Position numbers and translations under genes: made by a program
NCBI GenBank assembly: GCA_963977445.1
Contig: CAXBPH010000126.1
Coordinates: 1-19,094 of the forward strand
DNA: 19,094 nt
Direction: 5' to 3'
Source of the DNA: an uncultured bacterium
GTDB lineage: Bacteria > Hydrogenedentota > Hydrogenedentia > Hydrogenedentales > JAEUWI01
Notes under the pieces: generated by a model
Seen by the model: the letters and a program-made list of their open reading frames with translations, nothing else
Told to the model about the DNA's origin: nothing
Database searches by the model: none
Part shown: piece after piece, positions 1,485 through 10,943 of the stretch
How the letters are laid out: every line of letters begins with the position of its first letter
How positions within the stretch are numbered: the stretch's first letter is position 1

Positions 1485-1994
1485 TTAGACCGCTTGCGCT
1501 TCTCCATGAGCCTGCTGGTTCTTCGCCCTGTGGTGCAGGTACTTGAATTTGGAATCTATGGGTAGGTTGTCCTCAGCGAGTTCAATGACAGCCCGGTTCG
1601 TGGGCTTCACACCAAATGTATTATAGGCGTCCATTACTCGCCTGCAGCGAAAAGGTGTACTCTCGCCCAATAGGGAAGCCGACAATTCAGCGAGTTTTTC
1701 TTTCCTCTCCGCATCCGATGATGTGCTTTCACAAATAGCTTTCCAACCGTTTTCTAGGGCAACGCTGGCCCCTGGCTTCGATACGGTAGGCGGTACTATC
1801 GGCGAAATATTACGGGCGGGGCGGCTTCCTGAAAGGGAATCGTAGAGGTCGACCAGGTTGTCAATCTGATCCTGTGTAAGGCGCTCTCGATTAGTCCGGA
1901 AGTAGGTCATCACATCGGCACTATTTGAAAAGCGTGGAAAGCTCAATATCGGCTCGGCGTGTGGGTCTGGTTTATGCTCCTGAAAATGAAACAT
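1485..1994 (-). CDS. Hypothetical protein (169 aa) coupled to the rep gene
   Basis: ATG at 1994 overlaps the rep stop codon (TAATG), so the start is refined from 2066. No family recognised. Confidence 0.7.
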   Translation of the reverse strand: MFHFQEHKPDPHAEPILSFPRFSNSADVMTYFRTNRERLTQDQIDNLVDLYDSLSGSRPARNISPIVPPTVSKPGASVALENGWKAICESTSSDAERKEKLAELSASLLGESTPFRCRRVMDAYNTFGVKPTNRAVIELAEDNLPIDSKFKYLHHRAKNQQAHGEAQAV

Positions 1995-3028
1995 TACGAT
2001 ACAGCCCTCGATGACGTCGGCTTCGGTGGTAAGCTCTTTCCGTAAGGTGCAAGGAATTTTCCGCAAGCACTGGCGATGTATGCACCGGGTTTTTTGAGCC
2101 TCCCAAGATCCTTCGTCCGTCTTGTAGCGTCATCGCCACACTGTTCGGCATAGGTGATTGCTTCAGAAAGCCGATCAAGGCCTCCACAATCAACCATGAG
2201 GCCATAAACCGTTCTCCACCATGGTCGATAGCCTGGGGGGTCAGAGGATGCCTCTAGAAGCCGCTGAAATAGTTCTTTGTTGGCGTGTTCGCGTGGAATC
2301 GTGCCCGGTATGGCCAATACATCTGAAATTGAAACCGCCGATCCCGCCCCGCTATTCGAGTTCGGTGGAGTTGTGGCCACTCTCGGTGATCGGTTGCTTC
2401 TTCCCTGCCCCTGCGAACTCGGTTCGGTAGGGTGGGGTTCGGCATGGTTCGGTAGGGTAGGGTTCGGCTCGGCTCGGCTCGGCTCGGTAGGCGCGTTGGC
2501 GCGCGTCAACGCGCGTTCATTCTCTGGGTAGGGCGTTGACGCCCGAGTAGATAAACTTGAATGATTGTCAGTGGGAATGGCGGAAGGGGGAGGCGGATCG
2601 TTTGGGCATTGCTCTCGCTCAGCGACCATCCTTTTGAAGTCCCGTTCTATAGCGGGCCGGTCTTCTTTTCGTAATTTGGTCAATTTAGGGACGTTACCAC
2701 TTGCGAAGAAACGTCGCTCTTTCGCGAGTCGGTCATGTATGGAATCTTCGCAATGGTCTGACCAATCATGAACAACAATACGGTGTGAGCCGTGCTCATC
2801 AAGCCAACCGCGTTTTAACAGGACTTCGATCAGTTCATCAGGATCAGACTCATACCCGATTGATAGCGCTATTTCCTCGTTGGTAAACTTCCCCAGGTTG
2901 CCTTCAGGGGCGTTAAGGGCTGTGAAGTCCCATAAGTCTTGAAGTAGCCCCTTACCGGCGTATTTGGGAAGCTTGAGATCCCTCAGCATCAACAGAAATT
3001 TAGCTAATCCGTCTGTGCCTTTTTTCAT
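1994..3028 (-). CDS. Phage-type replication initiator / replisome-organiser-like protein (344 aa)
   Basis: N-terminal GLLQDLWDF..NAPEGNLGKFTNEEIA..IGY..DPDELIEVLL..GWLD....VVHDWSDH pattern seen in phage initiators, a central low-complexity linker encoded by DNA repeats (lambda O-like layout), and a small C-terminal domain. Confidence 0.7.
   Translation of the reverse strand: MKKGTDGLAKFLLMLRDLKLPKYAGKGLLQDLWDFTALNAPEGNLGKFTNEEIALSIGYESDPDELIEVLLKRGWLDEHGSHRIVVHDWSDHCEDSIHDRLAKERRFFASGNVPKLTKLRKEDRPAIERDFKRMVAEREQCPNDPPPPSAIPTDNHSSLSTRASTPYPENERALTRANAPTEPSRAEPNPTLPNHAEPHPTEPSSQGQGRSNRSPRVATTPPNSNSGAGSAVSISDVLAIPGTIPREHANKELFQRLLEASSDPPGYRPWWRTVYGLMVDCGGLDRLSEAITYAEQCGDDATRRTKDLGRLKKPGAYIASACGKFLAPYGKSLPPKPTSSRAVS
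2421..2544. repeat. Pentamer array and GC-rich palindromic motifs inside rep (candidate origin)
   Basis: 14 tandem GG(T/C)NN pentamers at 2421-2490, then GCGCGT at 10-bp spacing (2491, 2501, 2511) and GCGTTGRCGC or its complement at 2493, 2503 and 2533. Confidence 0.8.
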
Positions 3029-3062: not shown

Positions 3063-3120
3063 CACTACGTTTGAGTTTTGCCGCCCCAATTCTTCGAAGG
3101 CCTTGGGGTGGCGTTTTTTT
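3063..3120 (+). ncRNA. Candidate ~57-nt antisense RNA against the rep leader
   Basis: Lies between the promoter above and the hairpin GCCGCCCCAA / TTGGGGTGGC (3080-3089 / 3103-3112; the G-U pair works only on +) followed by T7 at 3114-3120. The 5' end is inferred. Confidence 0.5.
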
Positions 3121-4756
3121 AAAGTACTTCTACCGCATTCGCGCGCGCGCCGCCTGGTTGGGCTATAGCACCACCACCTGCCGTATTCTTCGCGATTTCC
3201 TTCAACAGCCGATGGATTTCTGGATCAGCGTTTGAAGACGTAGAAGAAGACGGCGCTTGTGAAGCATTGGCCGTTCCGCCCAAGCTGCTCCGATAGTTTG
3301 AATATTCGTTCTGAGTCATCAAGTGAGGCGGCATCTGGCGATTTCTTACCTCTTCAAGGGTTGTCCCAACATTGAAGGGGCCCGCCAAGATATCAGCAGG
3401 GCTAAACGACGCCCCCCGTTCAGCTCGGGCCATATCGGCGTCTCTCTTCTCAATCCATTTTTGCCGCATCTGGGCGCGAAACATTTCCCCATCCGTCTGA
3501 CTGGCAACAATATCCCGGCCTTCTTCGGCAAAACTTGGGCTAAGTACACCCAACACCTTCCCGCCAAAATCCCCCAGCGGACCAGCCTTGCCTCCAGTAG
3601 ATACAGCGACGTTCGCCGCCCCGAGATTCGCCCGTTTAATCATTTTCGCGTAGAATGATTCTGAAACCACATCATCGGCCAACATGGGCGCATTCTCGAT
3701 AGTGGACTGAATTGCCGTCATGTCACGTGCAAAAAAATGGGCAGGATCTGATAGTCGAGTACGAAGCTTTTCTAAGGCTGTATCGGTTTTCCCTGTAATC
3801 GACTCTAAGTGCTTCATGGATTGGGCAATATCGTCCACCGAATCGGCCATAATATTCGCAGACACAACCGATTCTTTACCGAAAACTTTGGCCATTTGCT
3901 TTCCATTGGTTTCAAAAAGCGTGTCCAACTGCCGAAGCTTATCGATATACGTTCCAGTTAAGGTGATGCCCTTCTCCTGGGCTTCCTGCATGATCAGGAA
4001 GACGTTTCGCATGCCCGTGAAAACCTTCTCAACGGAACCTGCCTTCTTTGTCGCCCCGATGATTGATCCTAAGACTTCATCCATATTTAAGCCCGTCACC
4101 TGGCCGGCAGAAAAGAGCTCCGGGGCGCGTGTGGCCAGGTCTTCAAAGCGGAGTGAGGCTTGCTCTTGGGTATACATTAGTTTGTTTTGTAACTGATTGA
4201 CGTTCGTCACCTCTTTTCCATAAATCTGATAGGCCTTCGTCATCAGGTTTTGCGCGGTCACCAGGTCGCCACCTGTCACCTCAGCGAGCTCGAGAGTCTC
4301 TTTCTTTAAGTCTCCGATTTCCGCAGCGGTCAAATTGCCCGTGTTCGATTTCAAGTCAAATAGGAAACCTGAAATATCCTTCACCCCCGCGCCAAGAGAA
4401 ATAGCCGTGGAGGTGATTTCACGGCGTAAGCCTTGTAGGTTCCCAGCGTTATCTCCAAGGGAAGAAAGGGGCGTCAGAGCCTTTTCAAGCTCCACGCGCT
4501 TCGAAACGAATTGATCTGCCCCTTGGTTGAGACTAGAGAAAACGGTTCCCAAACCTTGAAAACCCGCGTAGCCCGCGATGCTCAAACCTATCTTTTTTCC
4601 CATTTTTTGGAATGATGTACCCAACATGTCTGACTGACGGGAGAGTGCCTTCATATCACTGAGTTGGGCTTTATAGATTTCCTTCACAATGCCACGAGCA
4701 GCCGTAGTATTCCCTGTCGTGAATTCCATTTTTACTTCGGTATCGCCTTTACCCAT
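3119..4756 (-). CDS. Phage tail tape-measure protein (545 aa)
   Basis: Start refined to ATG 4756 (GGAAGG upstream; TAATG overlap with the previous stop). Ala/Gly-rich helical protein with a TP901-type core: LELAEVTGGDLVTAQNLMTKAYQIYG...LRFEDLA...AGQVTGLNMDEVLGSI...FTGMRNVFL. Confidence 0.85.
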   Translation of the reverse strand: MGKGDTEVKMEFTTGNTTAARGIVKEIYKAQLSDMKALSRQSDMLGTSFQKMGKKIGLSIAGYAGFQGLGTVFSSLNQGADQFVSKRVELEKALTPLSSLGDNAGNLQGLRREITSTAISLGAGVKDISGFLFDLKSNTGNLTAAEIGDLKKETLELAEVTGGDLVTAQNLMTKAYQIYGKEVTNVNQLQNKLMYTQEQASLRFEDLATRAPELFSAGQVTGLNMDEVLGSIIGATKKAGSVEKVFTGMRNVFLIMQEAQEKGITLTGTYIDKLRQLDTLFETNGKQMAKVFGKESVVSANIMADSVDDIAQSMKHLESITGKTDTALEKLRTRLSDPAHFFARDMTAIQSTIENAPMLADDVVSESFYAKMIKRANLGAANVAVSTGGKAGPLGDFGGKVLGVLSPSFAEEGRDIVASQTDGEMFRAQMRQKWIEKRDADMARAERGASFSPADILAGPFNVGTTLEEVRNRQMPPHLMTQNEYSNYRSSLGGTANASQAPSSSTSSNADPEIHRLLKEIAKNTAGGGAIAQPGGARANAVEVL

Positions 4757-4977
4757 TATTCGGTTTCCTTCCAAACTTGCGCGATGAATTTACCGAGTCC
4801 AAAACGATGACGGCCGTTCCTGCAGCTCTTGCAAAATTGGTTTACCTGGTCGATTTTCGAGCTCAAAAGGATCAAGATTCTTTGTATGCTTAGAAGCCAA
4901 CTCAGCGGAATCATGAAAGTAACCCGGTCACCAATAGGGAGGCCCCTCGAGGCGTTCCAGCGTTGAATGAGGCCCAT
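4756..4977 (-). CDS. Small hypothetical protein (73 aa) directly upstream of the tape measure
   Basis: ATG 4977 lies 1 nt after the DUF1580-like stop, and its TAA overlaps the tape-measure ATG, so it fills the gap exactly. Confidence 0.55.
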   Translation of the reverse strand: MGLIQRWNASRGLPIGDRVTFMIPLSWLLSIQRILILLSSKIDQVNQFCKSCRNGRHRFGLGKFIAQVWKETE

Positions 4978-4978
4978 A

Positions 4979-5311
4979 TCACATACCCAAATCTTGAAGT
5001 TTACGGTGGGCGGTTTCGGCGGCTTCAGTTCGTTGTCGGTCGGTCCGTGGCACAGGTAATTGGATGGGATTTCTGGAAGAACTTCGCAGCCTGAAATAGG
5101 CGGCGTCGGCGGCTTTGAGTTCGTCAAAAAAATCGTTTACATCTTTGTCAGCAACAAGAATTCGCCGCCCGCAACGAATATGTTTCAAGTGAATTCGGTC
5201 ACCTGATTTGACTTGGAGGCCTTCCCGACACCAACGCCATAAGGATTGTGGCGATGTTTTGACAGGGATATCGCGGGCAACTTGGGCTAACGTTCTATAT
5301 TCTTCGATCAT
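4979..5311 (-). CDS. DUF1580-like winged-HTH protein (excisionase/AlpA-like)
   Basis: TLAQVARDIP..TSPQSLWRWCREGL......IHLKHIRCGRRILV..KDVNDFF and a C-terminal RQRTEAAETAHRKLQDLG helix; AGGAG RBS. Confidence 0.75.
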   Translation of the reverse strand: MIEEYRTLAQVARDIPVKTSPQSLWRWCREGLQVKSGDRIHLKHIRCGRRILVADKDVNDFFDELKAADAAYFRLRSSSRNPIQLPVPRTDRQRTEAAETAHRKLQDLGM

Positions 5312-5369: not shown

Positions 5370-5407
5370 AAAATGGCCCCCGCCGCGCCCAATGATGCGC
5401 GGCGGGG
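5370..5407 (-). terminator. GC-rich hairpin after the capsid gene (terminator or mRNA stabiliser)
   Basis: Perfect 11-bp stem CCCCGCCGCGC / GCGCGGCGGGG (5378-5388 / 5397-5407); only a short U-run on -. Confidence 0.55.
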
Positions 5408-5435: not shown

Positions 5436-6542
5436 CTACTGCCCGAAGCTTCCCCACACCGCGCGGGGATCCAGGCGGGTACCGCCAAAAACGTGTTTAA
5501 CCTTCCAAGTGAGCACATCGGTCTGAATGCGTTTGATATCGCGGGCATCTGGGGCGCTTACCTGGGGAGCGTCGTAGCCCACCAAGGTCCCAAACTCACC
5601 GGCTGGAATATTGGCGGGGTCGGTGAACAGTGACCAGCACGTCGAACCAATGGTGCCAGATGTCGAAAGGACAGGGATCCAAGGATTAACCAGAAGTTTG
5701 ATTCCGAGATCCGACAGAACATTCTTTGTCCCGTGCGATTCTGCGACACCTGGGCCACTTCCAGACCCATCAACCACATGGTTAAGACTGATCGAGTTCA
5801 GCAATTGCATTGCCTTGATCATGAGCCCAGGTCCCACCATCAGGAATTTCGGCATGGAAATGATCGGGTCACCTTCGGTGTCGGTGTAACCAAGCATTTG
5901 TCCTACTGCTGTGGCCAAGTTATCTATCGTCAGAGGTAGGCTACTGGGCCCACTTGGTTGCGCACTATAAAAGGCATCAATTGGGCCACCAGCATCGAAA
6001 AACAAAGAGGTCATGAAGGCCTCCTCACTCCGCAGCGCGCCTCTGACCATACGTTCTGGAAGCGTATTAAAAACCCCTACCGGGTCATTGGTGATGGATT
6101 CCTCGGTGGCCTCAAAAAGCGCCCCGTGCTTACCCACAAAATAACGTTCGGTCTGTTCTTGCGACACGGTTATCTGTGGATATTCGCCATTCTCTTTGAC
6201 GAGCGGCAAGGTCGATTCAGCGCCTTCGAAGCGAGTCGCTTCGACGGAATTATAGTTCGGGATATTTTTGCGGGTGCGCACCACCGACTTCATCACTGAA
6301 GACGAATGGCGATAGAGGGTCTGCATTTGGCGCGCTGCGACATCGGCGATTAATACAGAGGCACTGCCTGTCGTAGTGGCGAATTGCCGAATTCTATCGG
6401 CTCGGCGCGCGGGGTCTCCGCAATCGCCCCATAAGACGTTGCTTGTCGCGGTCAGTTCGGCTTCAGAATGACATCGGCTTCGGCGGGAATCTTCCAGCGC
6501 CCAACCTTGGGAAAGATCAATTATAGTGGGTTCGTTTCTCAA
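5436..6542 (-). CDS. Major capsid protein, Mu gpT-like (HK97 fold), 368 aa
   Basis: VKENGEYP; KHGALFEATEESITND.VGVF..LP..M.RGA.RSEE; PKFLMVGPGL..KA.QLLNS; WSLFTDP; GTLVGYDAPQV; DVLTWKVKHVFGG..LDPR. Confidence 0.88.
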   Translation of the reverse strand: MRNEPTIIDLSQGWALEDSRRSRCHSEAELTATSNVLWGDCGDPARRADRIRQFATTTGSASVLIADVAARQMQTLYRHSSSVMKSVVRTRKNIPNYNSVEATRFEGAESTLPLVKENGEYPQITVSQEQTERYFVGKHGALFEATEESITNDPVGVFNTLPERMVRGALRSEEAFMTSLFFDAGGPIDAFYSAQPSGPSSLPLTIDNLATAVGQMLGYTDTEGDPIISMPKFLMVGPGLMIKAMQLLNSISLNHVVDGSGSGPGVAESHGTKNVLSDLGIKLLVNPWIPVLSTSGTIGSTCWSLFTDPANIPAGEFGTLVGYDAPQVSAPDARDIKRIQTDVLTWKVKHVFGGTRLDPRAVWGSFGQ

Positions 6543-6553
6543 GTAGAGATCTC

Positions 6554-6982
6554 CTAGAGGGTCAAAAGTTTGATGGGTATGTTGGCGGCGGTGGCAGAGC
6601 CCGACAATGCCGCCAGGGCAATTCCATATGGTGTATGGCCAGTGGTCGCATCGAGGGAGATAACACCGGTTGAGTCGTCAATATAGAGGGTTGCACCCAT
6701 GACGACGTTCGCGGTCGAATCATCATCACTTGCCACGACGGGTAGGGTGAAAATTCCGCAAGTTTGGATTACACAATCCGCGCCCACACCGCTTGGTGGA
6801 GTAACACAAATCCCTGTGAAACCACCAGCGACGACGACGGGATCGTAGATTTCAACCGGCGAATTGGGCGCGGTCAACGCGGATTCAGGGACCGTGATTA
6901 ATGACCCGCCCTGGCTCGGGGCTGGACTGTGTTCATAACCAGCCGCAAGGCCGGTCGGGTACATGGTTTTGGGGTATCCCAT
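6554..6982 (-). CDS. DUF2190-like capsid decoration/cement protein
   Basis: PVVVAG..TGICVT...GADCVIQTCGIFTLP...VMGATLYIDD...TT...PYGIALAA.....IPIKL; lies between the protease and capsid genes. ATG 6982 chosen for AGGAG spacing; TTG 6991 is possible. Confidence 0.78.
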   Translation of the reverse strand: MGYPKTMYPTGLAAGYEHSPAPSQGGSLITVPESALTAPNSPVEIYDPVVVAGGFTGICVTPPSGVGADCVIQTCGIFTLPVVASDDDSTANVVMGATLYIDDSTGVISLDATTGHTPYGIALAALSGSATAANIPIKLLTL

Positions 6983-6987
6983 TTTTT

Positions 6988-8001
6988 TCAATCTCCTGTG
7001 TGGGCGGCTTCTTCCGCCATTTTTTGGGCCTGTTCTTCGCTGTAGCCCTGGCTCAAGAATCGACGAAGAAATGATTCTTTCAAAGTCTCGCCGCCCTGGC
7101 TAAACTCGCCGCCCATGGGTTCCACGTTCTTAATATCAATCGCCGCCGATGTGGCCTCCAGCAATTCCATCTGGTGAAGCTTGTTGATACGTTCAAATTC
7201 TTTGTCGGATCGCTCGATCACTTGTTCAAGAAAATTCACCACCTGGCAACCACTAGCGATGGCCTCCAAAGCAACTTCTTGCAAATGAGCTTTACCACGA
7301 GAAAACTTGACAATATAAGCAACGCGATCCTTTTCGGTGGCGGGATCGGCGGGTTCAAGTTCGGATGTATTGGCCATCCCAAGGAGTTTTGCTTGGTGGC
7401 TCAGGACGCCCTGTGCGTGGGTGACGAATCCAGGATCTGTCAGCGCCTTTTTAAGGTCGACCATCGTTCTCGAATCGAGATTGACCCCTTTGGGGAGTTC
7501 ACCAAAAAGACCATCAGTAGCGGCTGGATCGTCAACAATATCGACCGCGTGCAAAGCATCAACACGACATAGGCGATATGAGACTTTATCTTCATCTTCA
7601 ACTCTTTCGGATTCCACGGTAGAGATGGAGACTGAAGCGCCCAGTAGACCCGGGTCAGACTTAGCGACGGACAAGATATGGTCTTTCGCGGTTTTCGGTG
7701 CCGCATCGGACCAGTGCAAATCGGCTACTACGACATCACCCGAACGGCGAAAGTCCTTAAATCGCCCCAGTGCGGTTCCAAACCCAGGCGAACAAATGTT
7801 CGGGTGATTGGCGCGGCATTTCACACCCTGGGGTGAAGCGTTGCCCAGGTCAATGACCTGGTCAAGGGTGGTTTCATCGATCATCAGATCGTGACCCCGC
7901 GCCTTGCCCATCGCGATAACGTGGACACCCTTCAAAACATCTATGTCACCGGTGATGACGGTGCCTTTAAGGGCCGGTGTTTCCAGGGTAAGTTCAGCCA
8001 T
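6988..8001 (-). CDS. Prohead maturation protease with a C-terminal scaffold-like region (337 aa)
   Basis: GVHVIAMGKARGHDLMIDETTL; GVKCRANHP (candidate catalytic His); LGRFKDFRR.GDVVVADLH; LGASVS (candidate catalytic Ser); LHAVDIVDDPAA; acidic helical C-terminal half; position before the decoration and capsid genes. Confidence 0.78.
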   Translation of the reverse strand: MAELTLETPALKGTVITGDIDVLKGVHVIAMGKARGHDLMIDETTLDQVIDLGNASPQGVKCRANHPNICSPGFGTALGRFKDFRRSGDVVVADLHWSDAAPKTAKDHILSVAKSDPGLLGASVSISTVESERVEDEDKVSYRLCRVDALHAVDIVDDPAATDGLFGELPKGVNLDSRTMVDLKKALTDPGFVTHAQGVLSHQAKLLGMANTSELEPADPATEKDRVAYIVKFSRGKAHLQEVALEAIASGCQVVNFLEQVIERSDKEFERINKLHQMELLEATSAAIDIKNVEPMGGEFSQGGETLKESFLRRFLSQGYSEEQAQKMAEEAAHTGD

Positions 8002-8698
8002 CAGTCAGGGCCTTAAGAGCCTGCGCGGCGATTTTGCGTTCTTCTTTCGACAGGTACAGATCGCCAGATAATTCATTGAGGCGTTCAAGATCATTGTTTT
8101 TGATGGCTTGATTCAGGTAGCGCCGATGCGAAGCGATAGTTTGTGTGATGGCATCGGGGCGGCTGGTAAAGGGAGGGAGGGGGCAGAGACGGTATCCAAT
8201 AGCATCCCAAAAGTCAATCCAACCCTTCGGGCCACAAGTTGAGCCTAGGGCAAACAGAGCTTGATCCAAAAGGTCCAGTTCTTGAGAATTCACAGCTTGA
8301 AGATTGTCCATAAATTCAGTGGATGTTTCTTTGATTACCCAAGTGTCAACCCAATCAATAATTGCCGCATAAACCTCGTGGCGACGAATATTAGTTAGGA
8401 TATGGGGCTGAATGGGTTTGGTCCCTGCTTCAATCCCAATTAATGTGGCCCTGTGACACCCAAGTATTACCGCGAAACCATCTTGGGTGTATCCCATTGC
8501 TTGACGCAATAGTTTGACCCGCAATGCTACGTGCGCTAATGAGTGTTTGAGTTTGTCGTGGATGGAGAACTTAACCCCATCATCCCCCTCTATCGGGGAA
8601 GTTTTCTTGGGTCGTGGAACGTTCATAGAGTCCAGTTTGCAGAACCCCTTGTACCACAATTCGGGATTAGGTGGGCAGAGTAGATATTCTATTCTCAA
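7994..8698 (-). CDS. XRE-family HTH regulator with an unknown C-terminal domain (234 aa)
   Basis: RVKLLRQAMGYTQDGFAVILGCHRATLIGIEAGTKPI; overlaps the protease start by 8 nt. The start codon is uncertain. Confidence 0.75.
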   Translation of the reverse strand: MRIEYLLCPPNPELWYKGFCKLDSMNVPRPKKTSPIEGDDGVKFSIHDKLKHSLAHVALRVKLLRQAMGYTQDGFAVILGCHRATLIGIEAGTKPIQPHILTNIRRHEVYAAIIDWVDTWVIKETSTEFMDNLQAVNSQELDLLDQALFALGSTCGPKGWIDFWDAIGYRLCPLPPFTSRPDAITQTIASHRRYLNQAIKNNDLERLNELSGDLYLSKEERKIAAQALKALTDG

Positions 8699-9137: not shown

Positions 9138-9180
9138 GGTCCCCCACGGTGTTGGCGCACTGTGGGGGACCGTCTTTTTT
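9138..9180 (+). terminator. + strand intrinsic terminator, the end of a candidate small RNA
   Basis: 14-bp stem GGTCCCCCACGGTG / CACTGTGGGGGACC (G-U pair on +) followed by GTCTTTTTT; no U-tail on -. Confidence 0.65.
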
Positions 9181-9562
9181 AGGCGGTCTGGGTGCCACCT
9201 ACCCCGAAGAACCTGGCAAATACTTGGGCCAGGGCATCTTCAGAGGGAGCTGGTGGGAGTGATTCTTCTAATATCGATGACGATAACCGTTCGTCCATCA
9301 GTTCCATTGGGGATTTGCCGGCCAAGTCTTCACCTTTCGTGTATATCTTGCTCCAGAAGTGGTGAACTGTAGAGCCGTTGGGCAGTATGTCGAGAGATAG
9401 GATCACGTCATCAAGATCGCAATGACCAGAAAATAGGGCCCCTGAAGGGTAATTGATGGTGTATTGGAAACTTCTATTGTGTCCCATGAAGATATTCCTT
9501 CTGTTCGGGTTTCCGACTCCGCTAGGAGAAGTCGATACAAAATCCGGTGCCCCAGTGGCCAC
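9179..9562 (-). CDS. Hypothetical protein (up to 127 aa) downstream of the integrase
   Basis: Fills the space after int on the same strand. No family recognised; the start may be the internal Met (MGHNRSF). Confidence 0.55.
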   Translation of the reverse strand: MATGAPDFVSTSPSGVGNPNRRNIFMGHNRSFQYTINYPSGALFSGHCDLDDVILSLDILPNGSTVHHFWSKIYTKGEDLAGKSPMELMDERLSSSILEESLPPAPSEDALAQVFARFFGVGGTQTA

Positions 9563-9590: not shown

Positions 9591-10751
9591 TTATCCGAGC
9601 TCTTGGGCTATTTGTATGGCTAACTCGGTATTCTTTTCGGCGTAGAGCTCGGTGGTGTTGATTCGGCTATGCCCCAGCGCAACGGAGGCTTCGATACCGG
9701 AAATCTTGCGCACTTCGGTGGCGTGGTTGTGACGTAGGCGATGGGGGTGCCAACGGGGCACCTTGGCGGCGTCACATGCGCGGCGGACTGCTCGAGCGTA
9801 TGAATCCTTGTCGTAATGGTCGCGGACTACGCGGGCGGTTTGGCGGGTATCGGCCTTTTGATTTGGGCGGCGATGGGTTCGGGCTTGGGACTTTTGTTCT
9901 GTGATGGCGTCCCGGGGACTAAACAGGTAACTGGAAATGGGTCTATCATTCAGAAAGGGCCGGATCACCTCTTGGGCTTTCGGCCCCATATAGAGGGTCC
10001 GTGTCTTTCCGTGATGAGCCGTCTTGTGTCTGCCCAGGTGGACTATCCATATCGCTTGCTCCGTGTTGATATCAATAGGACGTAAAAACACTACTTCAGA
10101 GCTTCGGGCACCCGTCAATAGTTGGAGTTGAATCAATGCCCATATTTGGCGGGATACATGATCCTTAATAGCGTGTACGTGGTCCAGGGGCACAGGTAGC
10201 ACCCTTTTGGGCTCTTTCGCTTGCGACCGCCCCGCTCGAAGCCCTTCGACCGTGGACAATGCCTGGTATACAGCGGGGCCGATCAACTCCTCAGAGACCG
10301 CCCAACGGAAGATCTTTTTCACTTCCCCTGTATAGTCGTTGATAGTCTTCCTGGCTAACCCTCGATTGATCCATGTCTCTCGAAGTGCTTTCAGGGATAG
10401 GGGGGAGAAGTCAGCCGCTTCGATATCGCCGTAAATTTTGCGCACATCGGCAATTACGAGCTTTACCCGGTCCAGAGATCGGGCCGCGTTGCCCTCTGGA
10501 GTTCTGTACCACTGTTCGGCGTGGTTCCAATAGCGGGCAAGAACTTCCACCACCAAAACCCCATCATCCTGGCGAAGGGGTAGGGCCCGACCAGAAGCAA
10601 GCCATTCGGACAAAGTCCGGTCATACTTCATTTGGGCAGAAGATGTGCCATACTTGCCCAAATAGACACGTTTTCCGGAAAGATTTACATAGGCTTGCCC
10701 GCTGGCCTTGTGTAATCGGATGGTGGGTATGTTTTTTTTGCTAAAAAGCAT
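9591..10751 (-). CDS. int: Tyrosine recombinase/integrase (386 aa)
   Basis: Catalytic set R (TGARSSE), K (HKT), H-x-x-R (HRLRH), H (LGH), Y (TELYA); N-terminal arm-binding-type region HKASGQAYVNLSGKRVYLGKYG; adjacent to the att/tRNA. Confidence 0.96.
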   Translation of the reverse strand: MLFSKKNIPTIRLHKASGQAYVNLSGKRVYLGKYGTSSAQMKYDRTLSEWLASGRALPLRQDDGVLVVEVLARYWNHAEQWYRTPEGNAARSLDRVKLVIADVRKIYGDIEAADFSPLSLKALRETWINRGLARKTINDYTGEVKKIFRWAVSEELIGPAVYQALSTVEGLRAGRSQAKEPKRVLPVPLDHVHAIKDHVSRQIWALIQLQLLTGARSSEVVFLRPIDINTEQAIWIVHLGRHKTAHHGKTRTLYMGPKAQEVIRPFLNDRPISSYLFSPRDAITEQKSQARTHRRPNQKADTRQTARVVRDHYDKDSYARAVRRACDAAKVPRWHPHRLRHNHATEVRKISGIEASVALGHSRINTTELYAEKNTELAIQIAQELG

Positions 10752-10820: not shown

Positions 10821-10863
10821 ATTAGCGGGAAACCAATCTAAGTGATTGATTCGACTTGGTTTA

Positions 10864-10911
10864 AAATGGTGGGCGATACAAGAATCGAACTTGTGACCTC
10901 CACGATGTCAA
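10864..10911 (-). repeat. attL: 48-bp direct repeat covering the tRNA-Val 3' part
   Basis: Identical to 316-363. Confidence 0.97.
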
Positions 10912-10943
10912 CGTGGCGCTCTAACCAACTGAGCTAACCGCCC
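10867..10943 (-). tRNA. tRNA-Val (GAC)
   Basis: GGGCGGTTAGCTCAGTTGGTTAGAGCGCCACGTTGACATCGTGGAGGTCACAAGTTCGATTCTTGTATCGCCCACCA: full cloverleaf, anticodon GAC, encoded CCA. Confidence 0.98.

Follow-up and report, generated by a model that had tools for sequence, protein, structure and literature searches.

The window analysed here is a stretch of 19,094 nt that makes up the entire contig C126 (CAXBPH010000126.1) of an assembly from an uncultured bacterium of the phylum Hydrogenedentota (G000, GCA_963977445.1; 7.1 Mb, 94% complete, 464 contigs). It contains a 10.55-kb island at a tRNA-Val gene, with 55-nt direct repeats at both ends that are 96% identical and spaced 10,548 nt apart, and every island gene lies on the minus strand. 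The left attachment repeat (309-363, no strand) is a copy of the 3' part of the tRNA-Val gene, and the right one (10857-10911, no strand) overlaps tRNA-Val(gac) at 10867-10943 on the minus strand. The gene that concerns us (3119-4756) encodes a 545-residue homologue of phage tape-measure proteins (TMPs) and closes a five-gene morphogenesis cassette, in which the genes before it encode a protease/scaffold-like protein, a cement protein, an HK97 capsid protein and a small conserved protein. Families of the tail tube, tip, sheath, portal and terminase had no match among the 12 island open reading frames (ORFs) in Pfam, PHROGs and NCBIfam, nor were chaperone, distal tail, connector or lysis families recognised there.

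A preliminary description of this DNA had reported an intact 545-residue TMP gene without tail tube, tip or sheath neighbours, standing alone and translationally coupled within what looked like an early or replication operon. Both the gene and the absence of such neighbours were confirmed, with the correction that the gene lies on the minus strand. Its open frame (3119-4774) gives 551 residues from a TTG, and the 545-residue product begins at 4756 with an ATG that has an AAGGAA motif before it. An ORF this long with 26 full-length homologues is far beyond chance. The word "lone" holds among tail genes, but a module of protease-like, cement and capsid genes lies directly upstream on the same strand. 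Coupling is real with the upstream neighbour, a conserved ORF of 73 codons (4756-4977, minus strand) whose stop overlaps the TMP start as TAATG, whereas rep is not coupled to the TMP gene because it starts at 3028, 90 nt downstream. The 73-residue product had no family match in the NCBIfam, PHROGs and PADLOC scans, and a complex prediction of it with the TMP (score 0.00, mark 0.32) spoke neither for nor against binding.

Profile searches supported the identification of the protein. PF10145 (PhageMin_Tail) matched residues 126-333 with 38.6 bits against a cut-off of 33.2, and the PHROG TMP families phrog_991 and phrog_28 matched at about 4e-7. A first homologue search returned 26 full-length relatives of 522-706 residues, all with PF10145. 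The family alignment was searched against 1.84 billion cluster representatives, and its profile matched 737 of them at E<=1e-3 and 137 at E<=1e-30. Among 33 proteins scanned from the profile search, PF10145 was present in 32 and one had no match; the 32 carried no further domain at E<=1e-4 except one weak TMP_3.

An alignment of 26 more distant members led to seven IMG/VR contigs, four of which were annotated (L013, L014, L016 and L018). In the three records that reach upstream of the TMP gene (L013, L014 and L016), it comes after a tail assembly chaperone gene (phrog_344), and in L016 tail terminator and major tail genes also precede it; L018 has its TMP in a structural region that also contains portal, protease and capsid genes, and no chaperone was recognised there. 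Residues 54-361 of the window TMP align with the TMPs of L013, L016 and L018 over about 300 residues at 32-33% identity (E 6e-43 to 8e-42), and the C-terminal ~185 residues have no counterpart in these canonical proteins. The link to the TMPs of cultured phages was only transitive, via P0036, which matches 102 GenBank phage records at about 1e-6; tblastn of the window TMP against 50,697 GenBank phage records gave no match, and a PDB sequence search with the family profile returned chance-level matches only (E ~0.5).

The AlphaFold model of the protein is all-helical, with 23 helices, no strands and a mean pLDDT (predicted local distance difference test) of 66. A structure search of BFVD gave 105 matches at E<=1e-3, and the named ones among the 50 listed were all TMPs, minor-tail or other phage tail proteins; a Foldseek search of the PDB returned nothing at E<=1e-3. 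Like canonical siphovirus TMPs (TP901-1/PhageMin_Tail), the protein is all-helical and has an N-proximal core domain preceded by a Gly-rich segment. It differs from them in length, with 545 residues against 637-732 in the nearest relatives, in a C-terminal third and terminal motifs that are specific to its family, and in a gene that is not flanked by chaperone, distal tail or tip genes. The curated profile, the homology to proteins in the TMP slot and the long, near-entirely helical build are all present; the gene does not stand between a G/GT chaperone and distal tail or tip genes, a matter of context that leaves the homology unaffected. We regard the protein as almost certainly a TMP homologue, and as a predicted short TMP of the siphovirus type.

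The family is marked by its ends. The N-terminus is conserved (M-x-K-G-D...), as is a C-terminal end motif (P-G-G-x-R/K-x-N-x-E-E-x-L); both were present in 28 of the 169 proteins compared and at least one in 38, and the family with conserved termini comprises about 30 sequence clusters. Two length classes can be told apart among the 33 island-type proteins, one of 522-574 residues (14 proteins) and one of 639-706 residues (19 proteins), and the difference lies in a charged coiled-coil insert that follows residue ~40. At 0.15-0.16 nm of tail per TMP residue, a value taken from the preliminary description and a preprint (bioRxiv 10.1101/2025.01.29.635557), this difference would equal about 17-19 nm of tail. 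Neither island-type terminal motif is present in the TMPs of L013, L016 and L018, and a TMP from another genome, G121 (L007), shows partial likeness at both ends. The latter has 550 residues, is encoded at 33-1685 of the 3.1-kb contig G121:C192, matches phrog_991 at 2.5e-22 and is distantly related to the island family (E 6.8e-22); the two ORFs upstream of it had no family match. JGI metagenomes scanned with the family alignment gave no relative, and a search for longer homologues (955-2725 residues) found none, which is weak evidence.

A pattern scan with one genome per GTDB species found two relatives of the island, L001 and L002, both in Hydrogenedentota metagenome-assembled genomes. L001, of 10.1 kb, lies at tRNA-Pro between perfect 54-nt repeats spaced 10,105 nt apart, and its gene order is as in the window. 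L002 has an integrase of another type, with an arm-binding domain, and a replication module with DnaD-like and IstB/DnaC-like proteins placed upstream; its order is helix-turn-helix (HTH) protein, 343-residue protein, cement, capsid, small ORF and TMP, with host genes shortly after. The genes for an HTH protein, a protein of 337-348 residues, the cement protein, the capsid protein, the small ORF and the TMP follow one another in constant order in all three loci, and the TMPs of the window and L001 are only 44% identical. The small ORF abuts or overlaps the TMP start in each locus, with a gap of 0 nt in L001 and an overlap of 8 nt in L002.

RNA folding placed a strong G+C-rich hairpin after the capsid gene in 3/3 loci. 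In the window it is an 11-bp, terminator- or attenuator-like hairpin just past the capsid gene stop (5378-5407, minus strand), and in L001 it is followed by UUUU; such an arrangement would fit much capsid protein and little TMP. A simple promoter/terminator scan listed no more sites than in shuffled sequence, and the hairpin at 5378-5407 was not among them. The rep genes of L002 lie elsewhere and its TMP gene still stands behind the capsid genes; therefore, the TMP travels with the capsid genes and not with rep. Together with the hairpin, this speaks against the early or replication operon of the preliminary description. The conserved unit is the capsid-plus-TMP cassette, and adjacency to rep is not conserved.

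The upstream members of this cassette are head proteins by their matches. The HK97-fold major capsid protein (5436-6542, minus strand) matches PF25209 (Phage_capsid_4) at 1.1e-31 and the capsid part of the NF045541 protease/capsid fusions at 2.6e-29, and the cement/decoration protein (6554-6991, minus strand) matches PF09956 at 3.9e-10, above cut-off, and the head decoration family phrog_122. The 337-residue protein (6988-8001, minus strand) has no Pfam match; its L002 orthologue, 44% identical, matches the head maturation protease family phrog_15531 at 1.7e-6, and a protein atlas gave leads only, namely Peptidase_S78/S77 clusters and the N-terminal part of protease-capsid fusions (TM 0.55). 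We consider it, with moderate confidence, to be probably a prohead protease with a scaffold part.

A TMP-derived helical protein could, in this setting, act on the capsid side, either as a scaffold that determines the size of a small head or as a pilot protein inside it, and would then have no part in tail length. Its gene follows the capsid module directly and accompanies it, its C-terminal third is family-specific, and satellites commonly encode capsid-size factors according to published abstracts. However, the homologous region is the TMP core, and at the N-terminus the layout agrees with that of canonical TMPs; the island already has a protease/scaffold-like gene, and no structural match outside TMPs was found, the PDB search having been empty at the threshold given above. 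A role in the head is therefore improbable in our judgement.

A profile scan of 135 genomes of the phylum gave a match in four, G000 included, and in three of the nine genomes of the genus, so that the distribution is sporadic. The island might be what is left of a larger temperate siphophage, with a TMP gene that has no present function. Phage-like regions with related capsid (32% identity), cement, chaperone and TMP genes do exist in the phylum (G088:C80 and G111:C323), and a decayed capsid-gene fragment with an in-frame TGA is present in G069. However, the window and L001 islands sit at different tRNA genes, are near-equal in size (10.5 and 10.1 kb) and keep both their repeats and their common set of genes intact despite the 44% identity of their TMPs, and 26/26 close homologues are full length with conserved termini. 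Furthermore, the 811-residue TMP-like protein of the G111 region, tried as a relative of the island TMP, showed no BLASTP similarity to it and no common termini. We see only a slim chance that the island is a decaying remnant.

The phage-like regions merit description in their own right. Both G088:C80 (L025) and G111:C323 (L026) are siphophage-like, with capsid and cement proteins about 32-33% identical to those of the island. By gene order and size, G111:C323 also encodes a major-tail-like protein, a chaperone-like pair and the 811-residue protein, and the 455-residue protease-like protein of G088 ends in 30 residues that resemble the end of the 337-residue island protein (47%, E 8e-4). These regions may represent a source lineage of the island capsid genes, and neither was linked to the island as a helper. 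In G069, a closed genome of the same genus, positions 2473528-2473716 of C1 (L024, L027) hold the 65-residue fragment with the in-frame TGA, which is 56% identical to the island capsid protein and probably a decayed copy of a related island; by BLASTP, none of the ORFs of that region matches an island protein.

The remaining island genes, all on the minus strand, provide integration, regulation and replication. A tyrosine integrase (9591-10751; PF00589 1e-14, phrog_1 2.9e-36) is followed by a 127-residue ORF (9179-9562) without a match in Pfam, PHROGs, NCBIfam or PADLOC and by an Xre-type HTH regulator (7994-8698; HTH_3 and HTH_31 weak and below cut-off, phrog_2328 repressor 2.7e-4), which occupies the equivalent position in L001 and L002. 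Between the capsid gene and the 73-codon ORF lies the gene for a small Xis/AlpA-like DNA-binding protein (4979-5311; phrog_66 1e-3, weak) that is 34% identical to its L001 orthologue (E 2e-22); a counterpart was looked for in L002 and not found. The replication initiator rep (1994-3028; phrog_9474 1.2e-13) is 44% identical to its L001 counterpart, and the start of a 193-residue ORF (1485-2066; no family match in Pfam, PHROGs, NCBIfam or PADLOC) overlaps its end. The last gene encodes a Zn-ribbon protein with a SAP-like region (521-1267; phrog_2308 3.2e-5) that is present in all three islands by BLASTP (L001 13421-13879, 5e-14; L002 5706-6284, 1e-9), and the L001 counterpart has a weak SAP domain match. 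A PADLOC scan of the island gave no defence model apart from the generic HTH.

Repeats and a further hairpin were also observed. The Zn-ribbon/SAP-like gene contains three to four 48-nt tandem repeats at 817-1008, which encode a 16-residue Pro/Glu/Ser-rich unit; the L001 and L002 orthologues are shorter, the latter with 12-nt repeats at the equivalent site. Two 25-nt tandem repeats at 2421-2470 within rep may be iterons of an origin that lies inside the initiator gene itself, as it does in lambda O. At 9138-9171, directly past the stop of the minus-strand 127-residue ORF, a 15-bp G+C-rich hairpin precedes a T run on the plus strand, and may be a bidirectional terminator between the integrase end and the regulator and capsid genes.

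By its make-up, the element agrees with the phage satellite that the preliminary description took it to be: the window island, at tRNA-Val, and L001 are each small integrative elements with an integrase and attachment repeats; the island has its own replication module and an incomplete set of virion, packaging and lysis genes, and the cassette recurs in L001 and L002. We consider it likely that the element is a satellite, and we favour, with moderate confidence, a satellite that depends on a helper siphophage, with a head shell and a tail ruler of its own and the remainder provided by the phage. A ruler function of the TMP in chimeric tails has, in our estimate, about an even chance.

We propose a plausible model for the cycle of the island. 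A helper siphophage would infect the cell or be induced, and the island would excise and replicate with its own initiator. The island capsid proteins would build a small shell around the portal and packaging parts of the helper, and the island TMP would enter helper tail assembly, resulting in satellite particles with chimeric tails whose length is set by the satellite. The 545 residues would correspond to a tail of about 80-87 nm at 0.15-0.16 nm per residue. With the TMP core and N-terminus retained, the protein may be able to enter helper tail assembly, and the family-specific C-terminal part with its end motif may dock to, or select, the tail tip of a particular helper. The gene is real and was named correctly, and the mechanism is plausible rather than proven.

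Several results weigh against this model. The NCBIfam model TIGR01760 reached 21.7 bits, below its cut-off of 28.8. No small terminase and no pac/cos signal was recognised in the island, and the TMP is unaccompanied by a recognisable tail assembly chaperone or hub gene, unlike in the PICI-like elements (PLEs, PICI standing for phage-inducible chromosomal island) of Vibrio cholerae. None of the four TMPs checked outside island loci had the full motif pair, and there is hence no evidence of mimicry of a helper TMP; IMG/VR viral contigs scanned with the family alignment likewise gave no relative. No helper phage was identified in the assembly. A second TMP (PF10145, PF20155, PF06791) had no match elsewhere in its 464 contigs, and neither did the PF04860 portal and PF03354/PF03237 terminase, although absence from an assembly in that many contigs is weak evidence. 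A second phage-like structural cluster of the same assembly was rejected as helper or partner, as its capsid, scaffold and decoration proteins have no BLASTP similarity to those of the island.

The rejected cluster lies at about 7400-16100 of contig C71 (L010, L011) and comprises a Mu-type portal, a phrog_16951 protein, a virion protein, a Phage_capsid_4 capsid protein, a distal tail (Dit)-like protein and a 583-residue protein. No terminase, tail tube or TMP was recognised in it, and host-like genes lie on its flanks. Possible readings of it are a remnant, a module of podovirus type or a domesticated particle locus.

The same entry into helper tail assembly would also serve interference, if the satellite TMP were a dominant-negative decoy that gives dead-end tails and acts mainly against the phage. 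A ruler and a decoy are inseparable by sequence. The decoy would account for a protein that keeps the core common to canonical TMPs and differs in its C-terminal third, with no chaperone or hub gene alongside, and blocking of tail assembly is a documented defence strategy (PMC11364771, PMC10884400; Rta). However, the TMP gene stands beside the island's own capsid genes in 3/3 loci, and an element that builds heads needs working tails for its transfer. A ruler more easily explains why there are two discrete length classes and why the termini are strongly conserved across about 30 clusters, and no PADLOC defence model matches the TMP. An interfering decoy is thus unlikely, though we would not call it far-fetched.

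A further account dispenses with the tailed helper. The island could be an HK97 mini-virus without tail and portal, whose TMP-like protein is packaged with the DNA and serves as an envelope conduit, comparable to the pilot protein H of phiX174. With 10.1-10.5 kb, the islands belong to the size class of "mini" HK97 genomes that lack portal and tail genes, for which non-canonical packaging is discussed in PMC13669383, and residues 56-75 of the TMP form a Gly-rich, mildly hydrophobic segment. However, with a maximum 19-residue hydropathy of 1.1, there is no strong transmembrane segment, and a packaging function is not recognisable in the island. The replication genes are of initiator, DnaD-like and DnaC-like types and not of the rolling-circle HUH Rep type; moreover, it is established that all known HK97-fold viruses need a portal, as PMC13669383 also states. 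This account would, if true, mean a new virion architecture within Duplodnaviria and explain why the TMP is the sole "tail" gene kept by such mini genomes; we consider it very improbable.

Returning to the helper-dependent satellite with its own head shell and ruler, the conserved termini and the two length classes offer testable handles on how the tail machinery of a helper chooses a foreign TMP, within the limit that the host is uncultured. Capsid-forming phage-inducible chromosomal islands (cfPICIs) are integrative satellites that make their own small capsids and use helper tails; they have genes for the portal, terminase and head-tail connectors and are not known to carry a TMP. By this definition, the island resembles them in being integrative and having its own capsid, and differs in having a TMP and no portal, terminase or connectors, none of which was detected in the window, L001 or L002.

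The first experimental demonstration of tape measures encoded by satellites dates from 2025, in PLEs, and they have also been reported in mycobacterial satellites. The preliminary description had mentioned that PLEs use their own TMP in chimeric tails, which is correct. According to the preprint, all PLEs encode a TMP and a chaperone; PLEs also encode a baseplate hub and form shorter chimeric tails with the phage ICP1; the TMP of PLE11 has 582 residues against 677 in ICP1 and becomes part of the satellite virions, whose tails are about 10 nm shorter, and further putative satellites carry predicted tmp genes (bioRxiv 10.1101/2025.01.29.635557). The island is like a PLE in being an integrative satellite with its own TMP. 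In contrast to it, PLEs have a chaperone and a baseplate hub and use the helper capsid protein, whereas the island has its own capsid, cement and protease-like proteins, with only the 73-residue ORF without family match beside the TMP. Furthermore, ICP1 is contractile-tailed and the relatives of the island TMP occur in siphovirus-type modules, a comparison made by description.

Extracellular Prophage-Inducing Particles (EPIPs), satellites of Mycolicibacterium aichiense, have capsid, scaffolding and TMP genes together with a small terminase, an adaptor and a stopper, and they are without tail-tube and lysis genes and differ from their helper in tail length (PMC12822802). The island shares with them a small size and the joining of a major capsid protein, a scaffold-like protein and a TMP. 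It differs in its tyrosine recombinase (PF00589), EPIPs having a serine integrase, in the lack of a recognised small terminase, head-to-tail adaptor or stopper, and in its additional cement protein; the host phyla also differ, and this comparison too is one of descriptions.

The "mini" twilight-zone HK97 genomes of Aguilar et al. (2026), of 5-11.6 kb, have no portal or tail apparatus; tail genes occur in 23 of 536, and just one in 20 of these 23 (PMC13669383). With 10.1-10.5 kb, PF25209 and a single tail gene, the islands fall within this class, though the published set required terminally repeated contigs. Common to both are a size below 11.6 kb, an HK97 capsid protein, a scaffold, an integrase, replication genes and no portal or terminase. 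The mini genomes described there are metagenome contigs, circular or with terminal repeats, that come mostly from the human gut and have encapsulin-like capsid domains, whereas the island is integrated, belongs to Hydrogenedentota and has a Phage_capsid_4 capsid protein, and its TMP is a constant and not an occasional feature of the family. The island thereby offers a concrete reading of the single tail gene in a few of the published mini genomes. VEIMEs, mobile elements that integrate and are encapsidated in virions, are without capsid genes (PMC9618062).

We found no paper on Hydrogenedentota elements or on this cassette in the literature on TMP-bearing satellites, which is not proof that none exists. 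Satellite TMPs in PLEs and EPIPs and portal-less mini HK97 genomes are already published, and the island is a variant of these and not a new category. By gene content it fits none of the PLE, EPIP, mini HK97 and VEIME families, but it is predicted to work like them. It extends the pattern of satellite TMPs to an uncultured phylum, and does so in a lean form, with its own head shell and tail ruler and without the chaperone, hub, portal and terminase.

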